A DNA stretch of 64,000 nt from Candidatus Freyarchaeum deiterrae (lineage in GTDB: Archaea; Asgardarchaeota; Jordiarchaeia; Jordiarchaeales; Jordiarchaeaceae), in assembly GCA_037305845.1 (NCBI GenBank), contig CP147778.1, positions 1,632,001-1,696,000 of the forward strand, written 5' to 3'. Below are positions 15,848 to 58,305 of this stretch, piece by piece (the stretch's first letter is position 1; each line of letters opens with the position of its first letter). Under the pieces are notes generated by a model that did not search any database, was not told the DNA's origin, and saw nothing but the letters and a program-made list of their open reading frames with translations. The translations under genes and the position numbers were made by a program.

Positions 15848-16026
15848 GCAGGGTTAGCCAAGATTCCACATAGTTTTGTGTGGAATGGGAACGGTACGGC
15901 GGTAGAAACAGCCTCTATTATGAGATGTTGCAGAAGCTCGAGATCACCTATGGCCAATAAAGTGGGTCAGAACGTGAAACTTACTGGCGGGTTTCCGCCG
16001 CGTGAGTTCAAATCTCACACCCTGCG
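15848..16026 (+). tRNA. tRNA-Ser(CGA) with three introns (15/16, ~30/31, 37/38)
   Basis: Acceptor GCAGGGT/ACCCTGC+G73, long variable arm GGCGG-GTTT-CCGCC, T arm GTGAG-TTCAAAT-CTCAC; introns 15863-15891, 15906-15935, 15943-15978; loop CT CGA GA. Confidence 0.85.
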
Positions 16027-16088
16027 CTTACAAACAATATCAAATATGGGTAGGTATTCTTTTTGGAGACTATTTTACTTCGGTGTTT

Positions 16089-16120
16089 GTAATCTTTTTT
16101 CGATATCAAAAAAAGATATC
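16089..16120. repeat. GATATC-like array (3 units, 13-bp period)
   Basis: GTAATC 16089, GATATC 16102, 16115. Confidence 0.75.
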
Positions 16121-16220
16121 TGAATGCGGTGTGTTTTCCTCTCATCCTGCGTTTTTGCTTTTCAAAGTAGGCTTGTAATTATTTTTTGGCGCCTTTTAGA
16201 CATTTATTCCCAAAGATATG

Positions 16221-16718
16221 TTACCCCAGTAGGTACCCCAGTTTTTTTACAAGGTCTCTTCTTTCTTGTCTTTGTTTTTCGTTTTCGATGGCGGTCACTT
16301 TTTGGCCGTCGACTGCACCAAGTATTGCTCTACCGAGCGAAGTTTCTGCTAAAATTATCTGAACCGGATTCGCTGATGCTACTGTGATGTTGCAAACTGT
16401 GGCTACGTTTTTTAAGGCTCCTAAAACATGTATTGGGTAAGCGTTCGTCATTAGAATAACGAATGCGTGGGATGCTCCGATTGCTAGTGCGTTTTTCGCT
16501 GCGAGTTTGGCTAATCTATCATCGTTTCCATTGAATCTTACCAATTTTGGGACTGCTTCATTCATCGCGACTCCAAATTTAATACCCGGAGCCGCTGCGA
16601 CAATTTCCCTGAAAAGATAGTCAACAGTATAAATAGAAAAATTAGCCATACCGCAAATAAACTGGTCATCTTTTTCTTTCTCGATATCCAACGTTATTAT
16701 TTTAATATCCTGAGCCAT
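16221..16718 (-). CDS. Adenosine-specific kinase family (DUF355) protein
   Basis: PGIKFGVAMNEA, NAYPIHVL, ASANPVQII, GRAILGAVDG, ERRDLVKKLGY. Confidence 0.85.
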   Translation of the reverse strand: MAQDIKIITLDIEKEKDDQFICGMANFSIYTVDYLFREIVAAAPGIKFGVAMNEAVPKLVRFNGNDDRLAKLAAKNALAIGASHAFVILMTNAYPIHVLGALKNVATVCNITVASANPVQIILAETSLGRAILGAVDGQKVTAIENEKQRQERRDLVKKLGYLLG

Positions 16719-16899
16719 ATTATCACCAACACTTTTATCTCTTTAAGAATTTCAAATTCTAAACTCCTCTAATATAAACTGTCACAAAAAAACTTTATGT
16801 TTGTGATATTTGAGTTGTAAAAATAAAATTTTTATCGGTAACAGTAATTAACATTTTTTATCGATTTTGTGGTGTCTCTGGTAATGTTTATTAACTGAG

Positions 16900-18189
16900 T
16901 TAGTATGAAATTTTTGCACTGTAAGGTAGTCCTAGGACTTTTTCTGTTGCTTTTGCTACTGCTTCCCTATTATCCTTATCCGTGTATACTCTTATAATAT
17001 TTAGAAAGCCTTTCATAACTTCAACTATGTTAGAAACTTCTGATAGACTGCGTGGTACTTTTTCACCTTCTTGTGTTACTTGAAATATAGGGATTTCCAT
17101 TGGTTCTAGACTTATTGAATGATGGTACGGCACGGAGGGCAGTGTTGGTACATCTATGTAGACTTTTTCTCTTTCAACTCCTGCCTTTTCCGCAACTTCT
17201 CCTTCTATTTCGTGGCGTATTTTATCTTTGGTTATAATTGTTGAGAAAGCTTCATCCTTCGCAAAAGAGATTCTTTCGTACGCGACCTTTAGCAACTTTC
17301 TATTTTTCAAACAATTAATTATCTCTTTTGAAGCCTCACATTGTTCTAACATTGTCCACATAGTATAATCGTCTAACTTCAAGTAGTCGTATACCGATTC
17401 AAAGTTCATGAATTCTAATTGTTCATTTGCTTTCTCCATAGCTGTTTCTAGCATGATTTGAGCGGCACGAGAAGCTTTGTGGAAATAAATTGTTTTAAAA
17501 AGTTCTAAACGAGCAACAAAAAAAGTTTCTAGAGTAGATATGGAATTCAAATTTACTGCGAGGTTTTCGTCTAAAAGATCCATAGTGTAAATCAAACGAA
17601 AAATATCAATAGAACCAAAATCGCCACCAGTATGATAACTATCCCTCAGGCAGTAATCAAATTTATCCACATCTACCGCACTAGAAATAATTTGATCCAA
17701 AAACAATCTATTTTTTTCCTCCAGTTTTCCAACAGCTAGCCTAGCAATCTTCTCAGTATCTAAACCCAAAGTGCTTATTATATCATTTAATTCAGAGTTT
17801 CTAATCATCCAAGAGGTGAAATCCTCGTGGGTCTTTTCTAAATGCCTTAATAATAAAGCTTCAAAAATGTGCGAATAAGGCCCGTGACCGACATCATGCA
17901 ATAGACTTGCGATTTTTGCCATTGTTATTTCTAAGGGGTCGATCTCAACTTTTTGTGCGAGAGAATTTAATAATTGCTCTGCTAGGTACATGGTTCCTAA
18001 AGAGTGTTCGAATCTTGTATGCACTCCTGCTGGATAAACGTATTCGCTTCCTGCTAATTGTCTTATGCGCCGTAGTCTTTGGACGGGTTCGGCGTCAATT
18101 ATTTTTTTCTCGTCATATGAAATGTTTATGTAGCCAAAAATTGGGTCTTTAATGAATGACCATTTCCCCTTTTTTCTATTTTCTATCAT
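16900..18189 (-). CDS. HD-domain phosphohydrolase (dNTPase/SAMHD1-like)
   Basis: IKDPIFG, QRLRRIRQL, HTRFEHSLG, LLHDVGHGPYSH, DVDKFDY; ATG at 18189 preferred (GGGGA upstream), ORF extends to 18222. Confidence 0.92.
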   Translation of the reverse strand: MIENRKKGKWSFIKDPIFGYINISYDEKKIIDAEPVQRLRRIRQLAGSEYVYPAGVHTRFEHSLGTMYLAEQLLNSLAQKVEIDPLEITMAKIASLLHDVGHGPYSHIFEALLLRHLEKTHEDFTSWMIRNSELNDIISTLGLDTEKIARLAVGKLEEKNRLFLDQIISSAVDVDKFDYCLRDSYHTGGDFGSIDIFRLIYTMDLLDENLAVNLNSISTLETFFVARLELFKTIYFHKASRAAQIMLETAMEKANEQLEFMNFESVYDYLKLDDYTMWTMLEQCEASKEIINCLKNRKLLKVAYERISFAKDEAFSTIITKDKIRHEIEGEVAEKAGVEREKVYIDVPTLPSVPYHHSISLEPMEIPIFQVTQEGEKVPRSLSEVSNIVEVMKGFLNIIRVYTDKDNREAVAKATEKVLGLPYSAKISY

Positions 18190-18600
18190 TCTAAATCCCC
18201 TATTCTGTATTACTTTATGCATAATGTTACTTTATAATTTTGATAGATGTATTCCGAATCTTCTCTAATAACTTTTCTATTATATCTCTGGATTTATAAG
18301 CCAAATGCTTTTTCTCACATTAATACTTGACTTTTTGGGTTGTTTCTTCGTGTTTTATACATATTTGAGGTATAGGTGTAAATTGTAGTTGGGCTGACTT
18401 CCATAATTTTCGGAATTTTATTTTTTTATTCTCAGTAATCGCGTATTAGAAACCAGTCTACCCTTTCATCCGCTAAGATTGGAAAAAATAAAACCCCCAC
18501 GAAAATATGGAAAATACCATAATTAAAATAAGAAATGAGAAGCCATAAAATGCTTCATGAAAAATTAGGCTAATAACCTCTCAACTAATATTTTTGAGAT

Positions 18601-18909
18601 TTATAAAAGTTCGACTTCAATATAAACATCTTCGGGTACACGGATACGCATAATCTGCCTTAATGTTCTTTCATCAGCGTCAAGATCAATCAATCTCTTG
18701 TGAATCCTTATTTCCCACCTTTCCCAAGTGGCATTACCCTCACCACTGGGGCTTTTACGGACAGGGACTCTTAGCCTCTTAGTGGGAAGAGGAACTGGAC
18801 CGGACATTCGAATTCCGGTTTTCTGAGTAATATTCTTAACCTGATTGCAAACCGTGTCCAACTTTGAAGGATTAGTACCGGAGAGTCTGATTCTAGCCTT
18901 TTGTACCAT
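18601..18909 (-). CDS. rps10: 30S ribosomal protein S10 (uS10)
   Basis: [30 protein letters not shown]. Confidence 0.97.
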
Positions 18910-19331
18910 TGTTTATTCGTCCAGAATATTTTTTCCACATGTAATTGCAAAGCCTTCATAAAATTTGAAGCTTAAAAAACTTTTCCCCAAATTCAATTTT
19001 CGGCAAAGTACTTCAGCAGGGGGGACTTTCAATAAGTAATTCTTTTTTTAAAAGATAAGAATTCTCTACAAATGTGTCTGGTTTCGAGCTTTTTTTGAGC
19101 GAATTATTCTTAAATTTTTAAGGTTCATTTATTGGATTGGGGTAATAACCCAAAATTAAGAGAATTTTCTTCTAAAAATGCTGGATTTTTTAAAGGGGAC
19201 GACGCGTTGTTAAACGTTCTGTGGCGTTTATAGAAGGAACTAATAGTAAAGTATGCTAAATGAGTAGAATAATCTTTTAGAAAAAGAAAAGTTTAAGAGG
19301 GATTAATACACATTTTTGTTCGCAAAGGGTT

Positions 19332-19462
19332 GCCGAGGTAGCTCAGTTGGTAGAGCGTCAGGCTGTTAACTTGATGGTCAAGAGGTCTGTTTAAGATCTC
19401 TCCACAAGCAGGTCCGAGATGATATTGAAGCGTTTCATATCACGGATATCCTGTCCTCGGCG
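19332..19462 (+). tRNA. tRNA-Asn(GTT) with two non-canonical introns (48/49, 59/60)
   Basis: GCCGAGG/CCTCGGC acceptor, TCAGG-CT GTT AA-CTTGA anticodon arm; BHB introns 19380-19407 and 19419-19448. Confidence 0.9.
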
Positions 19463-19651
19463 CCTTTATTTAGTTAGTTTATGGCATATAAGACTTCATA
19501 GTTTGGTTGTTTTTAGGTTCGCTTCATATTTTTATAAAAAAGTATATAATAAAATCCGTATAGTTATAATATTCCACTCGAATAGGTGTTGCAAAACTTT
19601 TAATAAGTAATAAGAAAACTTGTTTGATATCCTTATAATAACATTTGCAAA

Positions 19652-19957
19652 ATGGAGAGATGCTTTATGAAGAAATCAAGGGGTTATCGTTCTGGAACTC
19701 GGAATGTATTAAAGAAGTCTGTTAGGGAACGTGGGCTTCCACCTCTAAGTAGGCTTTTACGAACATATGAGCCAGGGGAGAAGGTTAGCATTGTTATCGA
19801 CCCTAGTATTCACAAGGGCCAACCGCATAGAAGATTTCATGGAAGGGTTGGAACCGTATTAGAGAGACGTGGACGAGCTTATGTAATTTCTGTTTATCTT
19901 GGAAATAGTAAGAAGACTCTCATTTCTAGACCTGAACATATGAGGCCTATTAAATAG
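19652..19957 (+). CDS. rpl21e: 50S ribosomal protein L21e
   Basis: MKKSRGYRSGTR, IDPSIHKGQPHRRFHGRVG; start probably 19667. Confidence 0.96.
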   Translation: MERCFMKKSRGYRSGTRNVLKKSVRERGLPPLSRLLRTYEPGEKVSIVIDPSIHKGQPHRRFHGRVGTVLERRGRAYVISVYLGNSKKTLISRPEHMRPIK

Positions 19958-19970
19958 GAGGTAGGTCCTT

Positions 19971-20300
19971 TTGCCTGTTAAAATTTTGAAAGAAAAACTT
20001 CTTAATTTAGCAGAGGTTAAAAAAATTTTGGAGGAGCGTAGCGCAAAGGGAGAGTTAAGCTATGTTCAACGTGTCACATTAGATTATGCTACTAAGTTTT
20101 CACAATTTCCTGTTGAAAAGTCTGTAGAAATTATTAGAAAGTTAATCGAAACCTTTGGAATAAGCGAGAGTACTGCTATCCAAATTGTTAATGCAGTTCC
20201 AAAGAGTATTGATGAGCTTCGTGCCTTTTTAACAAACGAGCAAAAGACTTTCACTGAGGGTGAATTAGGAGAACTTTTAAAGATTCTGGAAGAAACATAA
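19971..20300 (+). CDS. rpoF: RNA polymerase subunit F (Rpo4)
   Basis: ELSYVQRVTLDYATKFS, HRDC-like; conserved rpl21e-rpoF-DUF655-rsmA order. Confidence 0.9.
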   Translation: MPVKILKEKLLNLAEVKKILEERSAKGELSYVQRVTLDYATKFSQFPVEKSVEIIRKLIETFGISESTAIQIVNAVPKSIDELRAFLTNEQKTFTEGELGELLKILEET

Positions 20301-20337
20301 CTCTAATTCTACTTACTATCGGAGGCGGGAGTAGAGA

Positions 20338-20919
20338 ATGATGTTTAGTTCTAAGAAGTATGAAGAGTTTGCATACGTGTTAGACCATCTACCAACAGGA
20401 CATGCAGAAGACCCGCGGCCCTCTTTTCAGAGGGAACCCCTTACACAAGCTCTTGGAGAAACATATTTCACATTACTAGAACTTGTCCCAAGAAAAGGAG
20501 CTACATTTTCTTTACATGAAAGAATTTACATCGGAAAAGGCTCTCGTAAAAAAATTGATCATGTTCAAAGGCGTATCCGTTATGAGGATATCACTTCAAC
20601 CGCTAAATCCGAACTTCCATTTGTTATTGAAAAAATAGTACAGCTAAGAGAAAAGGAATTTGTATACTTCTTCAATAATGCTCGTCCAATTACTACAAGA
20701 ATGCATCAGTTAAAGCTTATTCCTGGTATAGGAAAAAAGACAATGTGGCTCATTCTTGAGGAAAGAAAGAAGGCCCCCTTTAAAAGCTTTGAAAACATTA
20801 GCGAAAGGGTGCGAATGCCTGAACCCAAAAAGACCATAGTCAATCGAGTAATGAGTGAATTAAAAGGAGAAGACAAATATTACCTATTTACCCGCCCATA
20901 CACAACTAGCCAAGAATGA
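20338..20919 (+). CDS. DUF655 putative RNA-binding protein
   Basis: EEFAYVLD, GETYFTLLE, TTRMHQLKLIPGIGKK (HhH). Confidence 0.9.
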   Translation: MMFSSKKYEEFAYVLDHLPTGHAEDPRPSFQREPLTQALGETYFTLLELVPRKGATFSLHERIYIGKGSRKKIDHVQRRIRYEDITSTAKSELPFVIEKIVQLREKEFVYFFNNARPITTRMHQLKLIPGIGKKTMWLILEERKKAPFKSFENISERVRMPEPKKTIVNRVMSELKGEDKYYLFTRPYTTSQE

Positions 20920-20926
20920 TTTAGAA

Positions 20927-21760
20927 TTGAATAAGAACAATCTATTTTTAGAAACCATAAAAACATTGAGAAACCACAATATTAAAGTAAGCAAGAAAAA
21001 GGGGCAACATTTTCTAGTCAGCTCTAACCTGCTTAAAAGGGAGATAGAATACTCGGAAATGCAATCCTCCGATACGGTACTTGAAATAGGTGCGGGACTA
21101 GGAACGCTAACGAGAGCTCTGGCGGAGAAAGCAAAAAAGGTTTTTGCTATAGAAAAAGATCAAAAGTTACTCCAAGCCCTAAGAGACAATTTATCTAGTT
21201 TCAATAACGTTGAAATAATTTCTGGTGACGCCTTAAAGTTAGAGTTCCCACCAACTCAAAAAATCGTCTCAAACATACCCTACTCTATATCTTCTCCGTT
21301 AACTTTCAAAATACTCTCAACAAAGTATGAAAGAGCTGTTTTAACCTATCAACTTGAATTTGCAGAGCGTTTGGCTGCAAAACCTGGTACAAAAAATTAT
21401 GGTAGAATAACTGTTGGGGTATACTATAAGGCAGAAGCGAAGTTACTGGAGAAGATTCCAAGAATCGCATTTTATCCTCCACCAAAAGTCGAATCGGCAA
21501 TAGTTATGCTGAAACCCAAGCCGCCGCCATTCGAAACATTAAACGAAAAAACATTCTTTGAGATAGTGCGTTTTCTATTTATGCACCCCAATAAAAAGGC
21601 AAAACATGGTGTAAGATATTATCTAGAAAATAAGAATGGTACAGATATCAAACTTTCTGATCTAGAATTCCTCCCTGAAATTTTGGAAAAACGAGTAAGG
21701 AACCTAACGCCGAGTGAAATAAACGAAATCTCAAACATCCTAATTTCGGAGTATGAATAG
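20927..21760 (+). CDS. rsmA: 16S rRNA dimethyladenosine transferase RsmA/KsgA
   Basis: GQHFL, LEIGAGLG, VSNIPY, FYPPPKVES. Confidence 0.95.
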   Translation: MNKNNLFLETIKTLRNHNIKVSKKKGQHFLVSSNLLKREIEYSEMQSSDTVLEIGAGLGTLTRALAEKAKKVFAIEKDQKLLQALRDNLSSFNNVEIISGDALKLEFPPTQKIVSNIPYSISSPLTFKILSTKYERAVLTYQLEFAERLAAKPGTKNYGRITVGVYYKAEAKLLEKIPRIAFYPPPKVESAIVMLKPKPPPFETLNEKTFFEIVRFLFMHPNKKAKHGVRYYLENKNGTDIKLSDLEFLPEILEKRVRNLTPSEINEISNILISEYE

Positions 21761-21763
21761 TCC

Positions 21764-22378
21764 ATGAAAAACTTCGAGTATAAAGGCTTCAAATTTCAAG
21801 TCTTTAAAGATGTTTATGCCCCCTCAGATGATACCTTCTTGTTAGCGGAGAATTTAAATGTTTTCGAAAGTGACTATGTTCTTGATATGGGTACAGGCTG
21901 TGGTATTTTGGCTATTATTGCGGGGAACCTAGCCGCAAAGGTGGTAGGCGTTGATATCTCCGAAAGAGCCGTTATGAATGCGAGAATAAATGTGACTTTA
22001 AACAATATGGAGAGTCGTGTTGAAATACGTTTAGGAGATTTATGGAACGCTTTAAAATCTGATGAGCGGTTCAATTTGATACTGTTTAACCCGCCTTATT
22101 TACCGATTTCAAAATCTGAGACGAATACAGGTGTACTTGAAAAGGCATGGAACGGAGGCGAGAATGGGAGAGAAATAATTGATGTATTTCTCGCAAAATT
22201 TGATGATTTTTTAGAGGGAGAAGGGCGCGTACAGATGGTTTTGTCTTCATTATCCGGAATTGAAACCACTCTATCTTACCTTGAAAAGAAAGGATTTCAA
22301 GTTGAAAAAAAGACTGAAAAGAAATTTTTCTTTGAGAAATTGGTTTTAATTAAAATCAAAAGAGTGCAATTTGTTTGA
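21764..22378 (+). CDS. HemK2/MTQ2 family protein methyltransferase
   Basis: VYAPSDDTFLL, LDMGTGCG, FNPPY, GGENG. Confidence 0.9.
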   Translation: MKNFEYKGFKFQVFKDVYAPSDDTFLLAENLNVFESDYVLDMGTGCGILAIIAGNLAAKVVGVDISERAVMNARINVTLNNMESRVEIRLGDLWNALKSDERFNLILFNPPYLPISKSETNTGVLEKAWNGGENGREIIDVFLAKFDDFLEGEGRVQMVLSSLSGIETTLSYLEKKGFQVEKKTEKKFFFEKLVLIKIKRVQFV

Positions 22379-22424
22379 ATCTTAATATTAGACATATTTA
22401 AAAATATAACAATTTTTTATTTTA

Positions 22425-23639
22425 ATGAAGGTTAAGACTCTACCAGTAAGAAATACTTTGATTCTTGAAGGGACCGGGTTGCCAATAAATTTACATCCTG
22501 AAGCTCAGAAGGCTCTGAGAAAATTAGAAGAAGCAGAAACAAAGGAAGAGAAAGTCGTTGCTATACAAGAGTTATTACAGCACCTGAACAAGCATAAAGG
22601 AACAGAAAAATTTGAAAATCAGCTCAAAAAGCGATTGACGAAACTTAGAGCTGAACTTGAAAAAGAAAAATTAAGGAAATCTGGTGCATCTTCTGTTTTT
22701 AGTGTCAAGAAACAGGGGGCGGGGCAGGTAATTTTAGTTGGTTTAACAAATACCGGGAAGAGCGCTATTTTAAACCATCTCACAAGAGCTAAAGCTAGAG
22801 TTGATGATTATCCCTTCAAGACAACTCGCCCTGAAGTTGGAGTTTTAGATTTTAACTCAGCCCCCGTACAGATAGTCGAAGTTCCCGCGCTTTTTGAAGG
22901 TTTCAGCGGAAGTGAAAGTGGCCCTCAAATACTGTCCACTATTAGAAATGCTGACTCCATAGTTTTGGTCATTGACTTATCTCAGGACGTTTTGGAGCAG
23001 GTTAAAATTTTGTTGAATGAATTGGAGTCTGCTGGAATACTACTTAATCTAAGTCATCCCCCCGTTGAAGTAAAGAGGACTGGGAGTGGCGGAATCCAAT
23101 TAAGGGGAATTCAGTTTTTTGACGGGTCGCCTGAAGAAATTACAAATTTTTTGAATAAGAAACGCCTGGTTAACGTGGTGGTTCGTATTAGGGGTAAGGT
23201 TTCCTTAACTGATATCGAATTAGCTATGGATACTGGTATATTATACAAGAAGGCCATAATGGTTGCTACCAAGGGAGATTTGGTTGGGTCTTCAGAGAAT
23301 TATCAAAAGCTTCTGGATACTTACGGTCAAAGATTTGATATTTATCCTATATCTGTTTTAAAGGAAAAGGGGGTTGAGGAGTTTAAAGAGGGGATATTCA
23401 AATCACTCAGTGTTATTCGAATTTACACTCGGGAGCCTGGAAATGTTATTTCTGATAAACCACTAATTATTGAAAGGGGCGCCAGCGTCGAGGATGTAGC
23501 AAAAAAGCTTCATACACGTTTCATTAAAAATTTCAAGTGCGCTCGCATCTATGGCAAATCTGCGAAGCATGAGGGTGAAAGAGTAGGATTGGACCACGTG
23601 CTCGAAGATAATGATACTGTTCAGTTTTATCTCAATTGA
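22425..23639 (+). CDS. DRG/OBG-family GTPase with TGS domain
   Basis: KHKGTE, VGLTNTGKS, YPFKT, TKGD, C-terminal HVLEDND TGS; start probably TTG 22479. Confidence 0.9.
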   Translation: MKVKTLPVRNTLILEGTGLPINLHPEAQKALRKLEEAETKEEKVVAIQELLQHLNKHKGTEKFENQLKKRLTKLRAELEKEKLRKSGASSVFSVKKQGAGQVILVGLTNTGKSAILNHLTRAKARVDDYPFKTTRPEVGVLDFNSAPVQIVEVPALFEGFSGSESGPQILSTIRNADSIVLVIDLSQDVLEQVKILLNELESAGILLNLSHPPVEVKRTGSGGIQLRGIQFFDGSPEEITNFLNKKRLVNVVVRIRGKVSLTDIELAMDTGILYKKAIMVATKGDLVGSSENYQKLLDTYGQRFDIYPISVLKEKGVEEFKEGIFKSLSVIRIYTREPGNVISDKPLIIERGASVEDVAKKLHTRFIKNFKCARIYGKSAKHEGERVGLDHVLEDNDTVQFYLN

Positions 23640-23644
23640 AGTAG

Positions 23645-24364: not shown

Positions 24365-24423
24365 AGATAGGTTAATAAATCAGAATAAATTGAATCTCTT
24401 AGTTTAAAGTATTTCTGTTATAC

Positions 24424-27621: not shown

Positions 27622-30063
27622 TTAGTCCTCAATCAACTTCCAGAACTCCACATCATCCATAAAGCTCTTACCCACCCGTATACGCGAAGGCCCCGTAACA
27701 TTTTCCAATAATAACTTGCGTTCGATTTTGTCGACCATGCGACGCGAGAACAAAACTGTATCTGGATTTACACTAATGCTGTTAGCTCCTAATCGAACTA
27801 GAAACTCCAAATAATCAGGGTAAACACTGGGGGCCTGTCCACAGATAGAAGTAGTTACTCCGTATTTTTTACATATCTTAATAGTAAATGCTATTGCACG
27901 TAGAACTGCTAAATTACGCTCATCATATATCTCTTGAACACTAGCATCGTTTCTATCTACACCCAGAATTAACATTGTTAAATCGTTAGTACCAAAGCTA
28001 ACTCCATTGATTCCTTCTTGACAGAATTTGTCTATTAATAGTACACAGCTTGGAACCTCAACCATAATCCAGATTTGGAAGTCTGGGTCTACTCCCGGAT
28101 CTAGTCCTTCTTCTTTCATAATCTGTTTTACTTTCCTGAAAACGTCTACTGATTGCACAAAGGGTAGCATTACCCAGAGATTTCTCAGCCCGAATTCTTC
28201 TCTGACTTTTTTTATTGCTCTACATTCAAGTCGAAAAACATCGGGTTCTTTTATGTATCGGAATTGCCCTCTGTATCCTATCATAGGATTGGGGCCTACA
28301 TGCCCCGTTTCTTCCTCGTATTTCCTTCCACCTTCTAAAGCCAAGAATTCATCGGGTTTAAAGTCTAGAAATCTGTACACCACTGGACCTGGGCTGAAGG
28401 CATCGGCGACTTTTCTTACTCCGTCTGCAAATTGGTCTATCATTTCTTGTTCCCCGCCTTCTTCAATGAGTTTTCTTGGGTGTTTCCCTAATGTTATCAT
28501 CAAGTGCTCTGCTCTGAGTAGTCCAACACCATCCGCCTGTGTCTGTTTTGCAACTCTTTCTGCTATTTCAGGCATCGATAAGTTCACGTAGATTTTAGTA
28601 GCTGTAGATGCTGTCGTTGTGCCTACAGGCGCGGCTACGGTTTCTTCTTCCTTTTCGGCTTTTAGAATTCCTCGATATATCAGTCCTTTTCCACCATCAA
28701 CAGTTATTTGCCTCTCGCTTTGTAGAACATTGGTTGCCTTTTTTGTTCCTACTACACAGGGGATTCCGAGTTCTCGGGATACTATTGCCGCGTGGCATGT
28801 GTACCCTCCTTCGTCAGTTACTATCGCGGCTGCTTTTTTCATTACTGGAACCCAATCAGGTGTAGTCATTCTAGTCACTAAAATGTCTCCTTCCTTCAAT
28901 TCTCCTATGTGATTAATGTCTTTAATGACTCTCACCGGGCCAGCTCCTATTCCTGGGGATACGCCTAGTCCCTTAAGTATCATCTCTCGTTCCGTAGTAG
29001 TTTCTGGTTGGTTGGTTTTGGTATTTTTTTTTGCGGGTCCTGTGCTTGAACCATGTACTGTTTCCGGCCTAGATTGAAGTAAGTATATTTCTCCCTTTTG
29101 ATCTACTGCCCACTCGATGTCTTGAGCTGTTTTATAATGTTTTTCGATTTGTTTGCCATACTGGGCTATTCTCTTTATTTCTTCATCTGTTAAGGCTGGG
29201 ATATTTTGTCTTTCCGGAGGGATTTCTAAATGTTCAGTCTTTTCTGTACTAGGGTTTAATGCGTACTCGAGCTTTTTGGTTACAATGTGTTTTTCGACTA
29301 TTTCTAGATTAGATTTGTTCACTACATACGTGTCTGGTGTTACTGCCCCACTTACTACCGCTTCTCCCAGCCCCCAATTAGCTTCTATCATTATTTTTGT
29401 ATTATCCCCCGTTGCTGGGTGAAGTGTAAACATAACTCCCGCTGATTTTGGCTCAACCATAAGTTGAACAGCCACGCTAATGAGGACGTCTTGATGTCTG
29501 AATCCCTTTTCTTCTCTGTAAGTTATGGCTCTTTTTGTAAATAGGCTACTCCAACATTTTTCTACGGCTTCCAGCAACCCTTCTCTATTTTCGTTTAGAA
29601 AGGTCTCCTGCTGTCCTGCAAAAGAAGCGCCTGGCAATAGGGGAAGAATGGTTTAACCCATTACTTTATCCTCTGCGGAGGCGCTCGATCTGACCGCTAC
29701 TAATGGCTCTTTCTCTTTTACTCTCTTAGCTAGTTCGTCATAACTTTTCATTATTGCTTCTTGAATCTCTTCAGGGATTGGTGTAGATTCAATAAGTTGC
29801 CTGATTTTGTTTGATGCTTCTTCAAGTTGTTGGAAGTCTTTAGTGTCGGCTTTTTCAAGTATTTTGAATACTTTATTTTTTATATTTGTGTCTTCTAGGA
29901 ATTTCTTGTAGGCATAGGTAGTAATTGAAAAACCTGGTGGAACTGGGACTTTGGCTTTTGTTATTAGTTCACCCAAATTAGCGTTTTTTCCTCCTACCTT
30001 GGACACGTCTTCCTTTCCTACCTCTTCAAACCATAAGATTAAATCATTTTCATCGCGGCTCAT
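27622..30063 (-). CDS. ppsA: Phosphoenolpyruvate synthase, two exons (30063-29668 and 29637-27622), about 803 aa after splicing
   Basis: VGGKNANLGEL, AVRSSASAED|LPGASFAGQQET, EGGYTCHAAIVSRELG, FGTNDLT; 30-nt BHB insert separates D and L. Confidence 0.92.
29638..29667 (-). other. Putative BHB (tRNA-type) intron in ppsA mRNA
   Basis: AAAGTAATGGGTTAAACCATTCTTCCCCTA; in-frame TAA; folds GCA-GAGG-AT^A-AAGtAATGG/CCATTCTT-CCCC-TA^T-TGC. Confidence 0.85.
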
Positions 30064-42029: not shown

Positions 42030-42034
42030 ATTAG

Positions 42035-47080: not shown

Positions 47081-47101
47081 TTTTTATTTCCCGCCACTAA
47101 T

Positions 47102-48800: not shown

Positions 48801-48975
48801 TTTTCTTCCACTTCCTCTATTTTTTCACTTTTCTTGTTCTGTTTATCCTTATTCTACTGTATTTAAATTTTTTTTGGGAATTTATACTTTAAAAACAGAA
48901 GATTTTAAGTTTTCCGTATTTTTATCTTCAAAGCGTTTTCTTTACTCCTTTATTTCGAAGATTTTCCACTTAATA

Positions 48976-49347
48976 TTATCCGTATATGTTAGATTTATTT
49001 GGGGGATTTGAATGAATTATTGTATTCCTTTTATAGTATTCTCTTTCCATTTTGGTGCTTTCCCAAATCTCGAATAAATTTTTAATAGCCTGCGCCTTTA
49101 TATTTTCTGCTTTGAATCTAAAAATCCTTATTCTTCCAAATATCTTTTCTTGAACTAGTCCTACCTTTTTCAGAAAATTCAGGTGTTGATTAGTTGTAGA
49201 ATAGTTAAGGTTTGCACGTTTCGCTATTTCCGAGATGTTTAGTTCTCCCTCTTGGGCAAGGATTTTCACTATTTTTATACGTCCTTTCGAAGAAAAGATT
49301 TTTTCTAGAGAATTTTCTTCAATCGCTTCAGCTCTTTCGATCATCAA
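48976..49347 (-). CDS. ArsR-like winged-helix protein
   Basis: FSSKGRIKI, ELNISEIAKR..LNY, FGRIRIF; overlaps cdc6 stop. Confidence 0.85.
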   Translation of the reverse strand: MMIERAEAIEENSLEKIFSSKGRIKIVKILAQEGELNISEIAKRANLNYSTTNQHLNFLKKVGLVQEKIFGRIRIFRFKAENIKAQAIKNLFEIWESTKMEREYYKRNTIIHSNPPNKSNIYG

Positions 49348-50531: not shown

Positions 50532-50660
50532 TGCCTGCCCTTCCCTTGCAAAGTAAACTTTTTATTTCATATAATTATAAAAATACTCTTAACAGTATAA
50601 AATATCATGTGTATGTGTCATTTCCAATATTTCCGCTGACCTTACCACTACTAACTAAAA

Positions 50661-51890
50661 ATGATTAACCAAAAAGAAACTCATTTTTGTGAAAAATCTT
50701 TATTTTTCATATCGCCGTTACAATTAAGTATGATTAAATCATCAGTGTTTAAAGATGAAAGTACATTTTTCCCAGAGTATGTGCCTCCCACTCTCCCCCA
50801 TAGAGAGAAACAACTGGATCAGCTAATGCGTATTTACCGCCCGTTGCTCTCAGATAAACTGGTAAGCGTGAATAGTGCCTTGGTGGGGCAAGCAGGCCTC
50901 GGAAAGACTGCTACTTCGAAATTGTTTGGTCAAAAAATACAGGAAGTGTCAAAACAGTTTAACTCGAAAATACTCTTCGAATATATGTATTGCAGTACTG
51001 TGCGTACTTTGCCCGCTGTTTTAAGACAGATAATTATGAAAAATTGGAAGAAAGTACCTATTATGGGCGTTACTGGGAACGAATTAATCATTGAATTAAA
51101 CGATAGACTCAAGAGAGAAAATACACGGCTCATAATCGCGTTAGATGAAGCTAAACTTCTGGGCGGGGAAGCAATACACGGTTTAATTCGTAGTGCAGAG
51201 TACTTTGGATACGGAAACGCGTGGGTGAGCACCATGATTATAAGTAGACCCGAGGATTGGGCAGCCTACCTATATCCTCATTTAATAGAGGATGTTCACT
51301 CTGTAACAGAATTTTTGCGATACACAGAATCGGAATTGCAGGAGATACTTATGTATCGGGCGTCTCTGGGTTTCTATGAAGGCGTGCTTTCTCCAGAAAA
51401 TTGTAATATGGTTGCAAAGATAGCGAGTGAAACAGGAAATGCACGGCATGGAATAGAAATACTACGTCATGCATGCTATTTAGCCGAAAAAAACGAGGAA
51501 AAAAGAATAACCCCCGAAATGATAAGAATTGCAAAAAACGAGGTTTACCCAGAAACAGCCCCCGAAATACTTCGTGGTTTACATAGACATGAACTAATTG
51601 CTGCACTATCCACTGCCACCACCTTAAAACAAGAGGTTGCAGTACCAATGCATAAGGCTTACGAACAGTACTGTATTGTTTGTGAAGAATATCAAGTTAG
51701 TCCGCGATCCACAAGAAATTTCAGAAACTACATTAGAGTTCTAGCTGAAATAGGATTAATTAACGCAGTGGTGAAAAATCTTAAACGCGGTAGACGGACA
51801 GTTATAACCCTAACAGATATTCCTGCATCTATTCTAGAAGAAAGAGCCAGAAAACTATTAGAACAAAAAAGTAAAAACGACTTTGATTAA
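50661..51890 (+). CDS. cdc6: Orc1/Cdc6 paralogue (divergent)
   Basis: YVPPTLPHRE, GQAGLGKT, LDEA, GNARHGIE; start probably ATG 50730. Confidence 0.9.
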   Translation: MINQKETHFCEKSLFFISPLQLSMIKSSVFKDESTFFPEYVPPTLPHREKQLDQLMRIYRPLLSDKLVSVNSALVGQAGLGKTATSKLFGQKIQEVSKQFNSKILFEYMYCSTVRTLPAVLRQIIMKNWKKVPIMGVTGNELIIELNDRLKRENTRLIIALDEAKLLGGEAIHGLIRSAEYFGYGNAWVSTMIISRPEDWAAYLYPHLIEDVHSVTEFLRYTESELQEILMYRASLGFYEGVLSPENCNMVAKIASETGNARHGIEILRHACYLAEKNEEKRITPEMIRIAKNEVYPETAPEILRGLHRHELIAALSTATTLKQEVAVPMHKAYEQYCIVCEEYQVSPRSTRNFRNYIRVLAEIGLINAVVKNLKRGRRTVITLTDIPASILEERARKLLEQKSKNDFD

Positions 51891-52090
51891 AAAATAAATT
51901 ATAAACAACCTTCATAACTACATACTACATCTATTAAAATTCTCAACAAATGTTAAAATTATTTCAAATATCAAATCAACTTTTAACAATTACAAAATGA
52001 TTTAAAGAATATTATTGGGGTAATTTTCGCCTTAAGGTTCTTCTTGAGTGTACAGAAATTCTTAATCACACAATTATTGAGGGGATAAAC

Positions 52091-53173
52091 TTGAAAGTGA
52101 ATAGGGGCAAGCTTGACAAAGGAGAAGTCACATTAACACCCGAATCGCTTACAGATCTTTGGCATTTATACAACATTATATTAAAAGGAGACAACGTTTA
52201 TGCTAGAACATATAGACGCATACGAAGCCCTGATGAATCTTTGAGAGCCGATAAAGGAGAAAAAATCCCAGTATACTTAGGTATTACTGTAGAGGATACC
52301 TCGCTCCATAAGTATTCTAACAGATTAAGAGTAAAAGGAATTATAACCAGCGCTCCAGAGACTGTTCCCCGAGGTTCGCATCATACAATAAATGTTGAGA
52401 TAGGAACTCCCATTAAAATTGTAAAAGATAAATGGCCAAAATATATTCTTACACGTATAGAAGAATCTGAAAAAACGAAGGACGAATCAAAATTAGCCAT
52501 AGTATCGATAGAAGATGGAGAAGCAAGTATAGCAATAGTTGATAGATATAGTGTAGACATTATAAATAATATTAACCTGAACATACCAGGAAAAAGGTTT
52601 GTAAATCAACACGATGAAGCAATTAAAGCCTTTTTTAGTGAATTATCCAAGGCTCTTATACAGATACAAATGGATAAGGATGTACGCAAAATAATAATAG
52701 CGGGCCCCGGCTTCACTAAAGAGAATTTTCTAAAATATTTGACTAACAAATCTCCGGACCTGAAAAATAAGTTAATTTTAGAAAATGTAAGCTACGGGGG
52801 AGCAAATGGAATTTACGAAGTGATCAACCGAGGAGTAATAGAAAAAATTTTAGAAGAAAACAAGGTAATTGAGGATACACGCCTAGTAGAAGAATTTTTC
52901 ACACATCTGGCTAAGGAGGACAAAAAAGTCACATATGGACTTGACAATGTTAAGAAAGCTATTCTATACGGAGCTGTAGACAAGTTACTGATAACAGATG
53001 AAAAATTAAAAAACACTGATTTTGAGGAAAGAACAAAAAATGATGAAATTTTGCGTCAAGCCGAAGAGATGGGCGGGAAAATCCATATAATAAGCACACT
53101 CCATAGAGCTGGAGAACGCCTTCAAGCATTTGGGGGGATGGTTGCGTTTTTAAGATTCCCCATTTCTGAATAA
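52091..53173 (+). CDS. pelA: Ribosome rescue factor Pelota
   Basis: DLWHLYNII, RLRVKG, GSHHT, AGPGFTK, FGGMVAFLRF. Confidence 0.95.
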   Translation: MKVNRGKLDKGEVTLTPESLTDLWHLYNIILKGDNVYARTYRRIRSPDESLRADKGEKIPVYLGITVEDTSLHKYSNRLRVKGIITSAPETVPRGSHHTINVEIGTPIKIVKDKWPKYILTRIEESEKTKDESKLAIVSIEDGEASIAIVDRYSVDIINNINLNIPGKRFVNQHDEAIKAFFSELSKALIQIQMDKDVRKIIIAGPGFTKENFLKYLTNKSPDLKNKLILENVSYGGANGIYEVINRGVIEKILEENKVIEDTRLVEEFFTHLAKEDKKVTYGLDNVKKAILYGAVDKLLITDEKLKNTDFEERTKNDEILRQAEEMGGKIHIISTLHRAGERLQAFGGMVAFLRFPISE

Positions 53174-53234
53174 TTTTTATGAAAAGTAATCTAAAAATGT
53201 GGAAAGCTGTGCATAAATCATCTAATAGAACAAG

Positions 53235-54323
53235 TTAAAAGGGTGTATAAGCGGTTTCCAATCGGGGGGGGTCCGTTGGATACTCTTCTAAAATGCCCAC
53301 CCTAAATCCTTTCTTTTTAGCTTCTTCTGCAATTCTTTTGGCTATTTCTATTGATGTTTCAATTCTAGATTTTCTAGGGTTAAAGTAAATTAACTTGTCA
53401 GGAGTCTTGTATTTTTTAAGAATCGAATACAGTAAATTTATGTCTTCATCTGATTTGTCAAAGATGATTACTCCCTTTAAAAGAAGTCCTTCTCTAGTAA
53501 TCTTTTCATAAGGTTTGGCAACGTTTTTCGCCCGCCTCAATAATCTGTTCTTAAGCTGCACTCCACCTTTTAATTTCGATGGGCAGTAATGGATGTTTAA
53601 ATCCGTGTTACTCTCCGCCCATTTGAGTAACTCCATTGCAACATTTTCGCTTCCTTCCGCAGCTGCAATACTATTATTTTCTAGTTTGAAACCTCTTTCT
53701 TTCAATTGGAAAGCATTTGTTTCCGCAAATTCAAGCTCATTAATATTCAAAAAGTCGACTCTATATTTTTCAAGTGATTTAATTAGCTTCTTCATGGGCT
53801 CTGTTCCCCCCGGTATCGCTGGTATTTCAACCCCAACGTTTAAGGAACTGTCTACTGAAGCTAAAACCTCACTTGCTTTTTCACTTGAAATATGGAAGCG
53901 CATCTCATCGAGCCCAGCATCAGCCAATCTTTTGATATCATGTTTGTTAATTCGTTTCATTGCCGTGTAAAGATGTATGTGATGAGCTTCTCCAAAGTAA
54001 TCTTTTAAGAGCTGAACGTAGTGAATGGAGCGATTCAATACTAAAAGTGGTTCCCCCCCAGTTATTCCAGTTCCATCCGCACTACTAAGTATCGCTTCAT
54101 TAATTATATCCTCATCATCATGAACTAAACGCTCATTAGCATAAATAACGTCTCTTCCCTTTCGTTCGTACGAAATTGGGCAGTACCATGAACAAGTTAC
54201 CGGATTTTCGCATAAACCAGTCACAAACAAAACCAGTTTACCTCCCCTCATACACAACTGGCAACCCTGAGAAAGCCCCCCGATAAAAATTGACCCGCCT
54301 ATAGTTTTGGTAAGTTTACGCAA
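53235..54323 (-). CDS. Radical SAM protein
   Basis: GCQLC..GGKLVLFVTGLC, ITGGEPL, GLDEMRFH, NINELE. Confidence 0.88.
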   Translation of the reverse strand: MRKLTKTIGGSIFIGGLSQGCQLCMRGGKLVLFVTGLCENPVTCSWYCPISYERKGRDVIYANERLVHDDEDIINEAILSSADGTGITGGEPLLVLNRSIHYVQLLKDYFGEAHHIHLYTAMKRINKHDIKRLADAGLDEMRFHISSEKASEVLASVDSSLNVGVEIPAIPGGTEPMKKLIKSLEKYRVDFLNINELEFAETNAFQLKERGFKLENNSIAAAEGSENVAMELLKWAESNTDLNIHYCPSKLKGGVQLKNRLLRRAKNVAKPYEKITREGLLLKGVIIFDKSDEDINLLYSILKKYKTPDKLIYFNPRKSRIETSIEIAKRIAEEAKKKGFRVGILEEYPTDPPRLETAYTPF

Positions 54324-54333
54324 AACATCACCT

Positions 54334-55071
54334 TCACTTAGCCCTCATACGGTTACGCACAACAGAATCCTTATCCGAGATTCTTTTTAATACTTGTTCA
54401 AAGTTCTCATCTCTATCCAGAACTTTTTTAAGATAAACTCCTGTCCGCCCAACTTTATCACGCTTCATTAGCACCCTCACCCTCTGATTAACTATATCCA
54501 AACTAACACCCAAAATTTTGGCTGCGAGCGCTTCTCTTCCTACTACCGGGCTTTCTAAATGGCCTTTTTCAGTAGGTTCTATCAACATCAATCTTTTATC
54601 AACCCCAGGGACTCTTTTTTCTTGTTTCAAACCTTCTAAATATAATGCCCCACCAAAAAAATAAAATTCGTTTTCCAAGCGTCTGAGGTTTACCAACGGG
54701 AAGGATAAACTCACTTTATCTTCGAGATATATGTACGCCTTGGGAGCATATTGAGGAGTTGCTTGAACAATTTCTCTAGAAAAAAAATCCGTTTTAATTT
54801 TTTGAAGGGCACGTTCGACCATAAAGGATGAAACTACATAAGGTATGAAAATGTCTATATCGCTGCTTTCTTTTACATCTCCTCTAGCTAGACTACCATG
54901 GGTAATTGTTGAAATACTATATTCAGATAGATCTTCCATAATGTTAATTGCCTTCTCTCTTAACCTTTTCAAAAGTTTCCATCTTTTAGTATTATATAAT
55001 ATTTCGATTTTATCTCCGACAATTATTGGCTTTTCTACCATCGGAAACCACCTAAATTTAAACTTTAACAC
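54334..55071 (-). CDS. Nucleotidyltransferase domain protein
   Basis: HGSLARGDV..SDIDI, RVPGVDKRL, GRTGVY. Confidence 0.88.
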   Translation of the reverse strand: MLKFKFRWFPMVEKPIIVGDKIEILYNTKRWKLLKRLREKAINIMEDLSEYSISTITHGSLARGDVKESSDIDIFIPYVVSSFMVERALQKIKTDFFSREIVQATPQYAPKAYIYLEDKVSLSFPLVNLRRLENEFYFFGGALYLEGLKQEKRVPGVDKRLMLIEPTEKGHLESPVVGREALAAKILGVSLDIVNQRVRVLMKRDKVGRTGVYLKKVLDRDENFEQVLKRISDKDSVVRNRMRAK

Positions 55072-55417
55072 AATCTTCTAATACGTTTAAAACAAGGCTT
55101 ATGCTCCCTTACTAGCGAGGTTTTAACTTAATCCCATCTAAATACACACTTAAATCCCTAATACTTTTATAGATATTTACTTCAGGTGCCCCCAAAGATG
55201 AATTTAGAAAGACTATTTTTTAAAAAATTTTTTAAATAGTCAAATTTAACATTTAAAATCCTTTGTAAAAAAACTGGGTTCTTTTTCAGAGGATAATTTT
55301 TTAAGCAGTACTTAATCTGTTATTCTAAAATATTCTGAAAGTTGTTAAACGTTTAAACACTAAATTGAAATTCCACTAATTATAAACTTTGATTCTAAAA
55401 GAATGAAGGGGTAATCT

Positions 55418-56617
55418 TTGGCCGACACTTATTTTATTCTTGCGGCGGTTTTTATTTTTTGGATTATTTTATTTATTATAGCTAGGTATTTGCATCTAGA
55501 AAAATATGGTTTGGACGCATTCCCCGGCGTTTTAATGTATAGAACCAAGAGATTTAATAACATTATTTCGAGAATTGCCAAAAAATCCCCAAAAACCTGG
55601 AAAGCCATTGGGACTTTAGGGGTGGCATTAAGTTATGCTGCGCTCGGCTACGGTATTATTCTCTTTCTATCAAATTTAATTAACGCTTTTGTTCAACCAC
55701 AATTATCAGGTCCATTGGTACCAATAATCCCTGGAATTACCATAACTGGCATCTCAATAATCTACGTATTAATAGCTATTGCTATAACACTAATAACTCA
55801 CGAACTAGCACACGGAATAGCTGCCATTGCGGAAGGACTTCCCATAAAGTCAGCAGGCCTATTGCTTCTCATCATTATACCTGGTGGCTTCGTAGAATTA
55901 GATGAAAAAGCGATGAAAAAATCCTCTTCACGTTCTCGATTTAGAATATTTAGTGCCGGATCAGCAACTAATATTGCAACCGCCCTATTAGCGTTCTTGA
56001 TTGTCACCAACTTTGCGTTTGCTATATCCCCTTGGTACGGGCCTTCAATTGGTGCTTATGTTTATAATGTTGCTCCCTACTCTCCTGCAAACTTTAACAT
56101 CCCACCCTCTACAGTAATATATGCAGTAAATGGCACCCCAATAATTTCGGACTCCGGCCTCAGCTTATATCTCGCAAATGTTAAACCCTTTGAAACAATA
56201 GTATTAGACACCAGCATAGGTAGAATTACCCTAAATACAACCATCAACCTCCAAAATCCAACTCGTGGATATATTGGAATTTACACCCACCCATTTTATT
56301 TGCCATACCCTTCAGTATGGGGGCTAGGAATAAGCTTTCAAAACTACCTCTATTTCACATTATTTTGGATTTTTATTGTTACATTTAGCGTAGCCATGTT
56401 CAACATGCTTCCCATCTACGCCTTTGACGGAGATAAGCTGTTTGAAGAAGTGATAAGAAACATAGTGCCAAAAGAGAATAAACTAAAAATTGGGAAAAAA
56501 TCCTATTCGAAAAGAAAAATTTTAATTAATGTTGCACGTATAGTTGCAATCTCCCTGATTGTAGCTAATTTTATTTTCCCTCTGCTAGCTGTAGGCTATA
56601 CCCCCTTCCCCTTCTAG
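55418..56617 (+). CDS. Site-2 protease (M50) with PDZ-like insert
   Basis: THELAHG, GGFVE, AGS, NMLPIYAFDG. Confidence 0.92.
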   Translation: MADTYFILAAVFIFWIILFIIARYLHLEKYGLDAFPGVLMYRTKRFNNIISRIAKKSPKTWKAIGTLGVALSYAALGYGIILFLSNLINAFVQPQLSGPLVPIIPGITITGISIIYVLIAIAITLITHELAHGIAAIAEGLPIKSAGLLLLIIIPGGFVELDEKAMKKSSSRSRFRIFSAGSATNIATALLAFLIVTNFAFAISPWYGPSIGAYVYNVAPYSPANFNIPPSTVIYAVNGTPIISDSGLSLYLANVKPFETIVLDTSIGRITLNTTINLQNPTRGYIGIYTHPFYLPYPSVWGLGISFQNYLYFTLFWIFIVTFSVAMFNMLPIYAFDGDKLFEEVIRNIVPKENKLKIGKKSYSKRKILINVARIVAISLIVANFIFPLLAVGYTPFPF

Positions 56618-56649
56618 TTTACCCTCTTAAAATAGGAGGATAATATTTA

Positions 56650-57576
56650 TTGAACTCGTGCAAAAAATGCTCAAAAAACGCAGTGGTTTTCTTGCCCTAC
56701 TCAGGAGAAAAACTATGCCGTAAATGTTTTCTAAACTCTATTGAAAAAAGAGTTCAAAAAGAAATATCTCAATCTAAACTACTAAAAAGATCAGATAGTA
56801 TCGGAATTGCTTTATCCGGCGGAAAGGATAGCGTAACACTTTTACACATTTTGCATAAAATTGAAAGCGTTTTCCCTGAAAGCAAATTATCTATAATTCA
56901 TATCGATGAGGGCATATCTCAATACAGTGAAAAAAATCTAAAAGCAGTCAAGGAGAATGCCTCTGAATTAGATATACCCCTCATCAACGCTTCTTACAGA
57001 AAAATATACGGTAAAACACTCGACGAAATTATTAAACATGCTGAAAAAAGTGAGAATAAACGATTAGGCGCCTGTTCCTACTGTGGAGTGCTTAGACGAA
57101 AAGCTCTGAACAAAACCGCTTACGAAGCTAACGTAGATTGTATCGCTACCGCTCATAATCTAGATGACGAAACCCAAACAATAATCCTAAATCTTCTTAG
57201 AGGTGACCTAAACCGGCTTGTAAGAAACAATCCAACACCCAGAAAAATACACCCAAAACTAGTTCCACGTATAAAGCCTCTAAGGACGGTTCCAGAAAAA
57301 GAAACCACCCTATACGCATTCTACAAAAACTTGAAACACAATTCAAAACCATGCCCCTACGCAACCGAAGCATACCGAGATGATATACGCGTCTTCCTTA
57401 ACCAAATAGAAAGAAAAAGACCCGGCACAAAATACAGCATATTACGCCTTTATGACAAACTAAGCCCTCAAATCACAATTGACAAAAATTCAATTCAGGA
57501 ATGCGCAGTCTGCGGGGAGCCTTCCGTAGAAAAAACATGCAAATCATGCCAACTATTAGAAAAAATATCACCATAA
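56650..57576 (+). CDS. tRNA 2-thiolation protein (TtuA/NcsA/Ctu1, TIGR00269-like)
   Basis: N- and C-terminal CxxC fingers, SGGKDS PP-loop, CSYCGVLRR, TAHNLDDE. Confidence 0.9.
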   Translation: MNSCKKCSKNAVVFLPYSGEKLCRKCFLNSIEKRVQKEISQSKLLKRSDSIGIALSGGKDSVTLLHILHKIESVFPESKLSIIHIDEGISQYSEKNLKAVKENASELDIPLINASYRKIYGKTLDEIIKHAEKSENKRLGACSYCGVLRRKALNKTAYEANVDCIATAHNLDDETQTIILNLLRGDLNRLVRNNPTPRKIHPKLVPRIKPLRTVPEKETTLYAFYKNLKHNSKPCPYATEAYRDDIRVFLNQIERKRPGTKYSILRLYDKLSPQITIDKNSIQECAVCGEPSVEKTCKSCQLLEKISP

Positions 57577-57627
57577 AACCAGTAGTCTCAAAAAATATTT
57601 TTTTAATCACACGGATAATTTATTATA

Positions 57628-57995
57628 GGTGGCGAGTCCTGAAGCTCGACATCCCGCACTACCAGCGTATCTGACACCTATTCTCCAATCCGGGATTCTG
57701 GAAGCACCGAGCGTTCAGAGTTAGGTTGCTCCATCAGGGCGCCGACCTAAATTATGCCAGCGTTCTCCCGGGCCTAACCGGTTTCCCTAATGAAGGATAA
57801 ACATACTTTCCCTACGAAAAGCTGTTACCCACCGTCGATCCTCCAGTGCGGATTTTCACTGCCTCGGAGACAGACCGTTTTGGCAGATTGGATATGCCTC
57901 ACATCAGCTTTCGGCCCGCCATATAGAGGATTTGCGGTCGAGAGGAGAACCTCTCTCAGGCAACCCCTATTTGCCCGCCTAGACAAGCCACCACC
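57628..57995 (-). ncRNA. ffs: Signal recognition particle (7S) RNA with an intron in helix 8
   Basis: End-pairing helix 1, Alu domain (ATAGGGG / CCTCTAT loop complementarity), long helix 5, helix 6 GCTTTTC-GTAG-GGAAAGT, helix 8 AGG-CCC-GGGA-G[intron]GG-AGCA; TTTATAT about 25 nt upstream. Confidence 0.9.
57733..57764 (-). other. Putative 32-nt BHB intron in SRP RNA
   Basis: CGGG-AG^A-aCGCTGGC/GTCGGCGc-CCTG-AT^G; removal restores CCC-GGGA-GGG. Confidence 0.85.
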
Positions 57996-58129
57996 TAATT
58001 GAAGTCCCTCACAAAAATATAAACATTTCTTTTCCATATTTTAATCAACCATTAAGCAGTTTAAATAAAAAAATAACAAAATATTACTCTTTAAAAATCA
58101 TAATCAGAATATAGCTTCAAAGAGAGAAA

Positions 58130-58305
58130 TGGCGCAGAGAGCGGGGATTTCCTGACCAAAAAATTTTTTTGACCACTTCGAACCCGCGTTCCCCTCACGG
58201 GGAACTGGCTTAGCAGGCGTGCACCCGAAGAACAGTTGCTCCTCTAGTCAGCGCCGTACCGTTCCCATTCCACACAAAGCTAGGTGAAATCTTGGCTATC
58301 TCTGC
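58130..58305 (-). tRNA. tRNA-Ser(GCT) with three non-canonical introns (15/16, 29/30, 59/60), CCA encoded
   Basis: GCAGAGA/TCTCTGC+G+CCA; CTGGC-CT GCT AA-GCCAG; variable arm TTCCCC-GTGA-GGGGAA; introns 58262-58290, 58219-58248, 58147-58176. Confidence 0.9.

Follow-up and report, generated by a model that had tools for sequence, protein, structure and literature searches.

Short bulge-helix-bulge inserts in ppsA, SRP RNA, tRNA and other genes of the Asgard archaeon Candidatus Freyarchaeum deiterrae

The ppsA gene of Candidatus Freyarchaeum deiterrae, which encodes phosphoenolpyruvate (PEP) synthase, is broken within a conserved motif by a short insert carrying an in-frame stop codon. The gene lies in a stretch of 64,000 nucleotides (nt) from contig CP147778.1 (assembly GCA_037305845.1, positions 1,632,001 to 1,696,000 of the forward strand), here called the window, which also contains interrupted genes for three tRNAs and for the signal recognition particle (SRP) RNA. 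A preliminary description of the window listed ten introns and their lengths; all ten were confirmed, and each is of the bulge-helix-bulge (BHB) type. Judged from sequence, the inserts are archaeal BHB introns that would be excised at the RNA level, with a probability of about 0.9. The genome is a single contig of 3,576,204 bp with 40.7% GC, and a complete Ca. Freyarchaeum genome of 3.58 Mb is described in PMC11291895. The nearest relatives of its ppsA (81-83% identity) belong to the Freyarchaeota and Jordarchaeia and come from the same-genus genomes G001, G003, G004 and G005, bearing out the Asgard host that had been proposed.

The ppsA reading frame passes through RSSASAED, then ten codons that include TAA, and then LPGASFAGQ; excision of 30 nt rejoins the motif exactly. 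An insert occupies the same site in the relatives, where it measures 29 nt in the four same-genus genomes, 18 nt in G006, 19 nt in G009 and 20 nt in G007, and its central helix is fully paired (4/4) in all seven relatives examined. The gene is also split in G010. An uninterrupted ppsA is found in eight Asgard genomes that belong to other families and at 74 named loci of other groups, and among 151 genomes of the phylum split matches are confined to the two families of this order. Since the insert varies in length and frame across species yet keeps its pairing with the exons, it is best read as an intron.

The in-frame stops and frameshifts, together with the many Asgard genomes that have no ppsA, would also suit a reading of the interrupted protein genes as pseudogenes and of the SRP insert as a tolerated extension of helix 8. 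However, the ratio of nonsynonymous to synonymous substitution (dN/dS) against congeners is approximately 0.15-0.18 in exon 1 and 0.08-0.10 in exon 2, so that ppsA is under purifying selection on both sides of the insert. In addition, the genome has no PPDK_N gene other than ppsA, which is single-copy like the interrupted tyrS and kae1 genes, the insert position is common to several families, and the SRP insert breaks a helix-8 loop that is needed for SRP function (PMC4731332). This reading is highly improbable. An assembly or sequencing artefact might be suspected in a metagenome-derived genome, but inserts at the same sites are present in independently assembled genomes of other species, and these orthologues reduce the chance of an artefact to almost nil.

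The inserts share a geometry that can be seen directly in the sequence. The last bases of the exon pair with the 3' end of the insert in a 4-bp central helix, which is flanked on opposite strands by two 3-nt bulges, mostly rich in A, and the element is closed by a hairpin within the insert and usually also by an exon-exon helix. The central helix is 4/4 in three of the ten window inserts and 3/4 in seven, and most window BHBs are therefore relaxed. A cut after the second base of each bulge gives the exact mature product in the tRNAs, the SRP RNA and the protein motifs. An (alpha-beta)2 endonuclease would make these cuts and RtcB would ligate the exons, as expected from the known chemistry of EndA and RtcB, the genes for which are present. 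One protein-only pathway would serve tRNAs, SRP RNA, RNase P RNA and 16S rRNA as well as mRNAs from at least 20 protein genes, with introns placed in conserved motifs where probably nothing but exact excision is tolerated. Other intron classes do not fit. Inserts of 13-90 nt, the full range in this genome and its relatives, cannot hold the endonuclease open reading frame of mobile rRNA introns, are too short for group I or II introns (for which the window has no Rfam match), and have ends that are mostly A...AA and set by structure, not GT...AG. Spliceosomal and BHB introns differ in chemistry and signals, and the suggestion that the locus bears on the origin of the former is for that reason unsupported.

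The genome contains two EndA genes and an RtcB gene, the last itself interrupted by an intron. The EndA alpha aligns best to PDB entries 3P1Z and 3AJV, of the Aeropyrum (alpha-beta)2 enzyme, and the alignment takes in both the motif of the loop and the residues Tyr, His and Lys. The second EndA, a beta paralogue, has no such His and fits a structural subunit. By sequence the pair is of the (alpha-beta)2 type with a Crenarchaea-type loop in alpha, which answers the call of the preliminary description for the subunit architecture, and the genes suit an enzyme for non-canonical substrates. The relaxed-specificity EndA/RtcB system proposed there stands as far as its genes go, but does not account for the number of introns: this EndA architecture is widespread in Asgard archaea and does not explain intron load (bioRxiv 10.64898/2026.10.13.758758), so the enzyme appears permissive rather than causal.

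The SRP RNA gene has an insert of this geometry in an untranslated RNA. The Rfam alignment places an insertion in helix 8, and excision of 32 nt restores the tetraloop and yields the 17-nt helix-8 tip seen in Asgard SRP RNAs that lack an intron; a 30-nt intron was rejected as it leaves two extra bases where the 32-nt cut gives the consensus. At the same base, inserts of 31 nt (G001, G004, G005), 30 nt (G002), 24 nt (G006), 19 nt (G008) and 18 nt (G007, G009) are found, as well as one of 26 nt in a genome of a different family (G036), while the insert is absent from eleven genomes in which the motif is readable. Plagens (2015, PMC4731332) reported that the permuted SRP RNA of Thermoproteus is ligated at the helix-8 tip via a BHB, and proposed that its ancestor carried a plain BHB intron. 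The gene described here has kept a colinear order and has such an intron in the same loop; it thus supplies the predicted form, although likeness in form need not mean descent. SRP RNAs of 338-344 nt occur in G031, G021, G040, G030, G020 and G033, and additional sequence near the 5' end is present in at least three genomes (G021, G031, G040).

The preliminary description predicted further broken genes, and the ppsA and SRP inserts indeed are not isolated cases. Both strands of the genome were scanned for BHB motifs that, once removed, bring two coding frames together, with the mirror-image geometry as null. The first scan yielded cbf5, kae1, an HD-domain gene, pcm and a leuC-like gene, and at the strictest energy, before any sequence training, it gave five frame-breaking sites in the true geometry against one in the mirror. 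Later scans added alba, rtcB, nadE, tyrS, hypD, fadH, a PflX-like radical SAM gene and a ychF-like GTPase, with 19 true against 3 mirror sites; these enrichment scores are partly circular, as the bulge weights were in part learned from known cases. Inserts in gatE, porA, mvhD, hdrC, a ferredoxin gene, rps26e, endoQ, queE, moaE, fbp and a RuBisCO-like gene were further identified in sequence. The list comprises 28 BHB inserts in 26 protein genes (median 31 nt, range 21-73), and the central helix is 4/4 in 22 of the 28 inserts. Energy-only relaxed scans did not separate true from mirror geometry, and in-frame candidates lacking a stop showed no excess over the mirror, so that none is claimed. 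High-scoring sites at genome positions 2197887, 1883212, 1591752, 807994 and 2061335 proved to be intact genes or operon junctions, 1962377 is an S8e gene with its own start, and 1712724 has an intact frame that is IF-5A-like by eye; five unsupported candidates (2672773, 2627581, 2568255, 1586883, 3353605) were left out of the count.

Pfam matches or intron-less orthologues back 20 of the 26 genes. Pfam coordinates are consecutive across the inserts, for example NAD_synthase 4-136/138-242, TsaD 8-61/64-264, PCMT 2-59/61-208 and S26e 1-33/38-95, and intron-less orthologues align without gaps across the sites. The inserts lie mostly within conserved motifs (GHSGTL/D, GPG/LGP, HDIGH/GPFSH, YP/ITP, CG/THE), and in cbf5 the break falls behind the first base of the catalytic Asp codon, the place it also has in Crenarchaeota. 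The affected genes are less than 1% of the total if there are approximately 3,400 genes, as the genome size suggests, and this share is a lower bound; at least 20 mRNAs, and probably more than 26, would be matured by the pathway. All 28 inserts lie mid-chromosome between genome positions 987065 and 2636190, and the recovered tRNA genes lie between 0.81 and 2.34 Mb, which may reflect where conserved genes are placed or a bias to recognisable motifs. A 31-nt BHB insert beginning at TGA breaks a protein that has no Pfam match (genome 2434719-2434689, minus strand).

Ribosomes might instead skip the mRNA inserts by frameshifting, read-through or bypassing, as in T4 gene 60 and the yeast mitochondrial byps elements. 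The inserts are short, stop-carrying hairpins and are of a size resembling byps. Nevertheless, among orthologous inserts the frame shift may be 0, +1 or +2 and the stop TAA, TAG or TGA, most inserts split a codon, and ppsA and gatE have no matched take-off and landing codons by eye. The same geometry also occurs in SRP RNA, RNase P RNA and tRNAs, which are not translated, and skipping is very unlikely. Several points do weigh against splicing as the explanation. Seven of the ten introns in the window, that of ppsA included, have one central-helix mismatch; the ferredoxin, endoQ, queE, moaE and RuBisCO-like cases and one hypothetical gene rest on motif inspection only; and the scan has both false negatives and false positives, several of its top sites being intact genes or operon junctions. 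The earlier view that splicing was generalised to several RNA classes thus holds for the presence of BHB inserts in those classes, whereas splicing itself is inferred.

Orthologous introns vary in length while BHB pairing is kept: 18, 19, 20, 29 or 30 nt in ppsA, 18-32 nt in SRP RNA, 17 or 28 nt in hypD and 27-40 nt in alba. The kae1 insert is 28-29 nt in the genus, 13-14 nt in the sister family and 28-32 nt in a third family, and is absent from 13 other genomes; its 8-bp exon helix shows compensatory changes at synonymous sites. The third family (G022, G032, G011) comprises genomes of 1.3-1.4 Mb from outside the order, with AT-rich intron cores at the same site. Sister-family introns of ppsA, kae1, SRP RNA and hypD are all 13-24 nt. 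The ppsA, SRP, hypD, alba and leuC inserts are order-wide; that of porA is limited to the genus among the genomes searched, and that of tyrS is seen only in the genus, the sister-family site being unreadable. The HD insert is absent from the congeners G002 and G003, the mvhD insert from G003 (in which the protein is 92% identical), the nadE insert likewise from G003, and the hdrC insert is patchy among congeners. These differences indicate that turnover is recent and repeated. For the active gain proposed in the preliminary description, what the genus shows is that introns were either gained or lost within it. Protein-catalysed splicing of mRNA is, on the sequences compared, very probably routine in this archaeon and still spreading.

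Apart from paralogous tRNA pairs, the introns show no relation in sequence. When 72 were compared, only paralogous tRNA pairs (Ser, Gly, Arg) reached or exceeded the shuffled maximum of 30; the best score between an mRNA and a tRNA intron was 25, within the null, and no common donor sequence was found among them. This agrees with the conclusion that there is no general intron-copying route (bioRxiv 10.64898/2026.10.13.758758). In contrast to the transposed tRNA intron families of Thermoproteales, related intron sequences across sites or genes were not encountered here outside these pairs.

Splicing could also be real and act as a regulatory switch, with the capacity of EndA/RtcB controlling genes of metabolism and translation. 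The intron in rtcB would fit such a switch, as would the in-frame stop present in 12 of 12 introns of length 3n in relatives, by which an unspliced mRNA would give no full protein. Stop enrichment fits a fail-safe equally well, however, and is no more than suggestive because the cases are not independent; the targets are functionally mixed, and the HD, mvhD, nadE and hdrC introns are missing in congeners. A switch is therefore unlikely, and the likeliest view is that the introns are passengers which a permissive enzyme allows to persist. A wider proposal is that protein-only mRNA splicing is an old, regulated layer of Asgard gene expression, a pre-eukaryotic source of RtcB-dependent unconventional splicing, with the SRP intron a precursor of permuted SRP RNAs. 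The kae1 intron in three families, the crenarchaeal position of the cbf5 intron and the intron in rtcB would be its marks, but the proposal is doubtful.

A BHB intron in a pre-mRNA was described for crenarchaeal cbf5 (Watanabe 2002; Yokobori 2009, PMC2738675), and introns in other genes were only predicted (Yokobori 2009, PMC2738675). A 2020 paper names cbf5 as the sole earlier mRNA case and adds a site in a Haloferax 5' untranslated region. In the literature searched, cbf5 is thus the one gene with a documented intron in archaeal coding sequence. The inserts described here resemble it in being short, protein-free BHB elements in coding sequence, at the same Asp codon in cbf5 itself, and the crenarchaeal intron is cut by a heteromeric EndA, matching the alpha and beta genes found here. 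They differ in affecting at least 20, and up to 26, genes that are unrelated to one another, and in having been gained or lost in part within one genus. The intron passages in PMC11291895 all concern tRNA, and bioRxiv 10.64898/2026.10.13.758758 mentions neither mRNA, SRP, rRNA nor RNase P; no literature on Asgard mRNA or SRP introns was found in a search that left subscription journals largely uncovered. The mechanism is that of the known archaeal BHB pathway; the literature searched has no report of this pathway extending to dozens of mRNAs or to the RNAs of SRP and RNase P.

In eukaryotes, splicing initiated by IRE1 likewise uses proteins only to remove a short intron that shifts the reading frame, from XBP1 and HAC1 mRNA, and in animals the ligation is of the RtcB type. 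The process is alike, but IRE1 is a different nuclease that recognises dual stem-loops in one mRNA under regulation. If splicing does take place at the archaeal inserts, a prokaryote closely related to eukaryotes has to rely on it for dozens of mRNAs, among them those of the essential genes tyrS, kae1, gatE and rtcB, and for its SRP and RNase P RNAs. Standard annotation would label such genes as frameshifted or truncated, distorting metabolic reconstructions and completeness estimates of Asgard genomes. How BHB introns arise is a question left by bioRxiv 10.64898/2026.10.13.758758, and introns that differ among congeners offer datable gain and loss events for testing their origin.

Table 1. 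Interrupted genes and BHB inserts (window positions unless marked as genome positions)
Feature	Position	Strand	Basis
tRNA-Ser(CGA), three BHB introns	15848-16027	+	ARAGORN 118.6 after excision
Ser-CGA D-loop intron, 29 nt	15863-15891	+	BHB cut sites
Ser-CGA anticodon-stem intron, 30 nt	15906-15935	+	BHB cut sites
Ser-CGA anticodon-loop (37/38) intron, 36 nt	15943-15978	+	BHB cut sites
tRNA-Asn(GTT), two introns	19332-19464	+	partial Rfam match; ARAGORN 119.2 after excision
Asn-GTT variable-region intron, 28 nt	19380-19407	+	BHB cut sites
Asn-GTT T-loop intron, 30 nt, strict BHB	19419-19448	+	BHB cut sites
ppsA (PEP synthase), two exons	27622-30060	-	Pfam PPDK_N 2-113 then 115-324
ppsA BHB intron, 30 nt, in-frame TAA	29638-29667	-	central helix 3/4; inside RSSASAED/LPGASFAGQ
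Archaeal SRP RNA gene	57630-57990	-	RF01857, 103.6 bits
SRP RNA BHB intron, 32 nt, helix-8 tetraloop	57733-57764	-	central helix 4/4
tRNA-Ser(GCT), three introns	58130-58305	-	ARAGORN 121.0 after excision
Ser-GCT T-loop intron, 30 nt	58147-58176	-	BHB cut sites
Ser-GCT anticodon-stem intron, 30 nt	58219-58248	-	BHB cut sites
Ser-GCT D-loop intron, 29 nt	58262-58290	-	BHB cut sites
RNase P RNA BHB insert, 23 nt	genome 1698728-1698750	+	central helix 4/4; common to G003
16S rRNA BHB insert, 90 nt	genome 1805166-1805255		central helix 4/4, 8-bp exon helix

Beyond the window, BHB inserts also interrupt the RNase P RNA and the 16S rRNA (Table 1). Close to its 3' end, RNase P RNA has 26 additional nt that form no strict BHB, are present in all four matched genomes and were taken to be a variable helix. 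A second 16S insert of 32 nt, in which no BHB was recognised, lies in the 3' terminal GGAA loop near genome position 1806470. Rfam gave no match to 5S rRNA at about 1426500-1426700 of the genome. Introns of tRNAs genome-wide have a median of 29 nt (range 19-47). The uniform length of about 30 nt noted earlier holds within the window (28-36 nt) but is only a tendency over the genome (19-90 nt), and is a trait of this genome and not of BHB elements.

ARAGORN finds no tRNA in the raw window, and calls all three after excision at the BHB cut sites. The claim that every structural RNA is interrupted is correct for the window, which has no further Rfam match at E<=0.1, but not for the genome, where 3 of 23 recovered tRNAs are intron-free. 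A high tRNA intron load in Freyarchaeia, Jordarchaeia and Atabeyarchaeia has been published (PMC11291895; bioRxiv 10.64898/2026.10.13.758758); the eight window tRNA introns are members of this multi-intron class, and resemble the multi-intron tRNAs of Thermoproteales as well. The selenocysteine tRNA (genome 810536-810384, minus strand) was recovered only once two inserts, 28 nt and 32 nt long, had been removed. Between tRNA-Ser(CGA) and tRNA-Ser(GCT) the D-loop introns are almost identical, pointing to duplication or gene conversion, and the Gly and Arg isoacceptor pairs are alike in this respect. The T-loop of tRNA-Asn (window 19413-19418 plus 19449, plus strand) has the sequence TCCGAGT, in which position 55 is C instead of the usual U, and it is from these bases that the T-loop intron gains a central helix free of mismatches.

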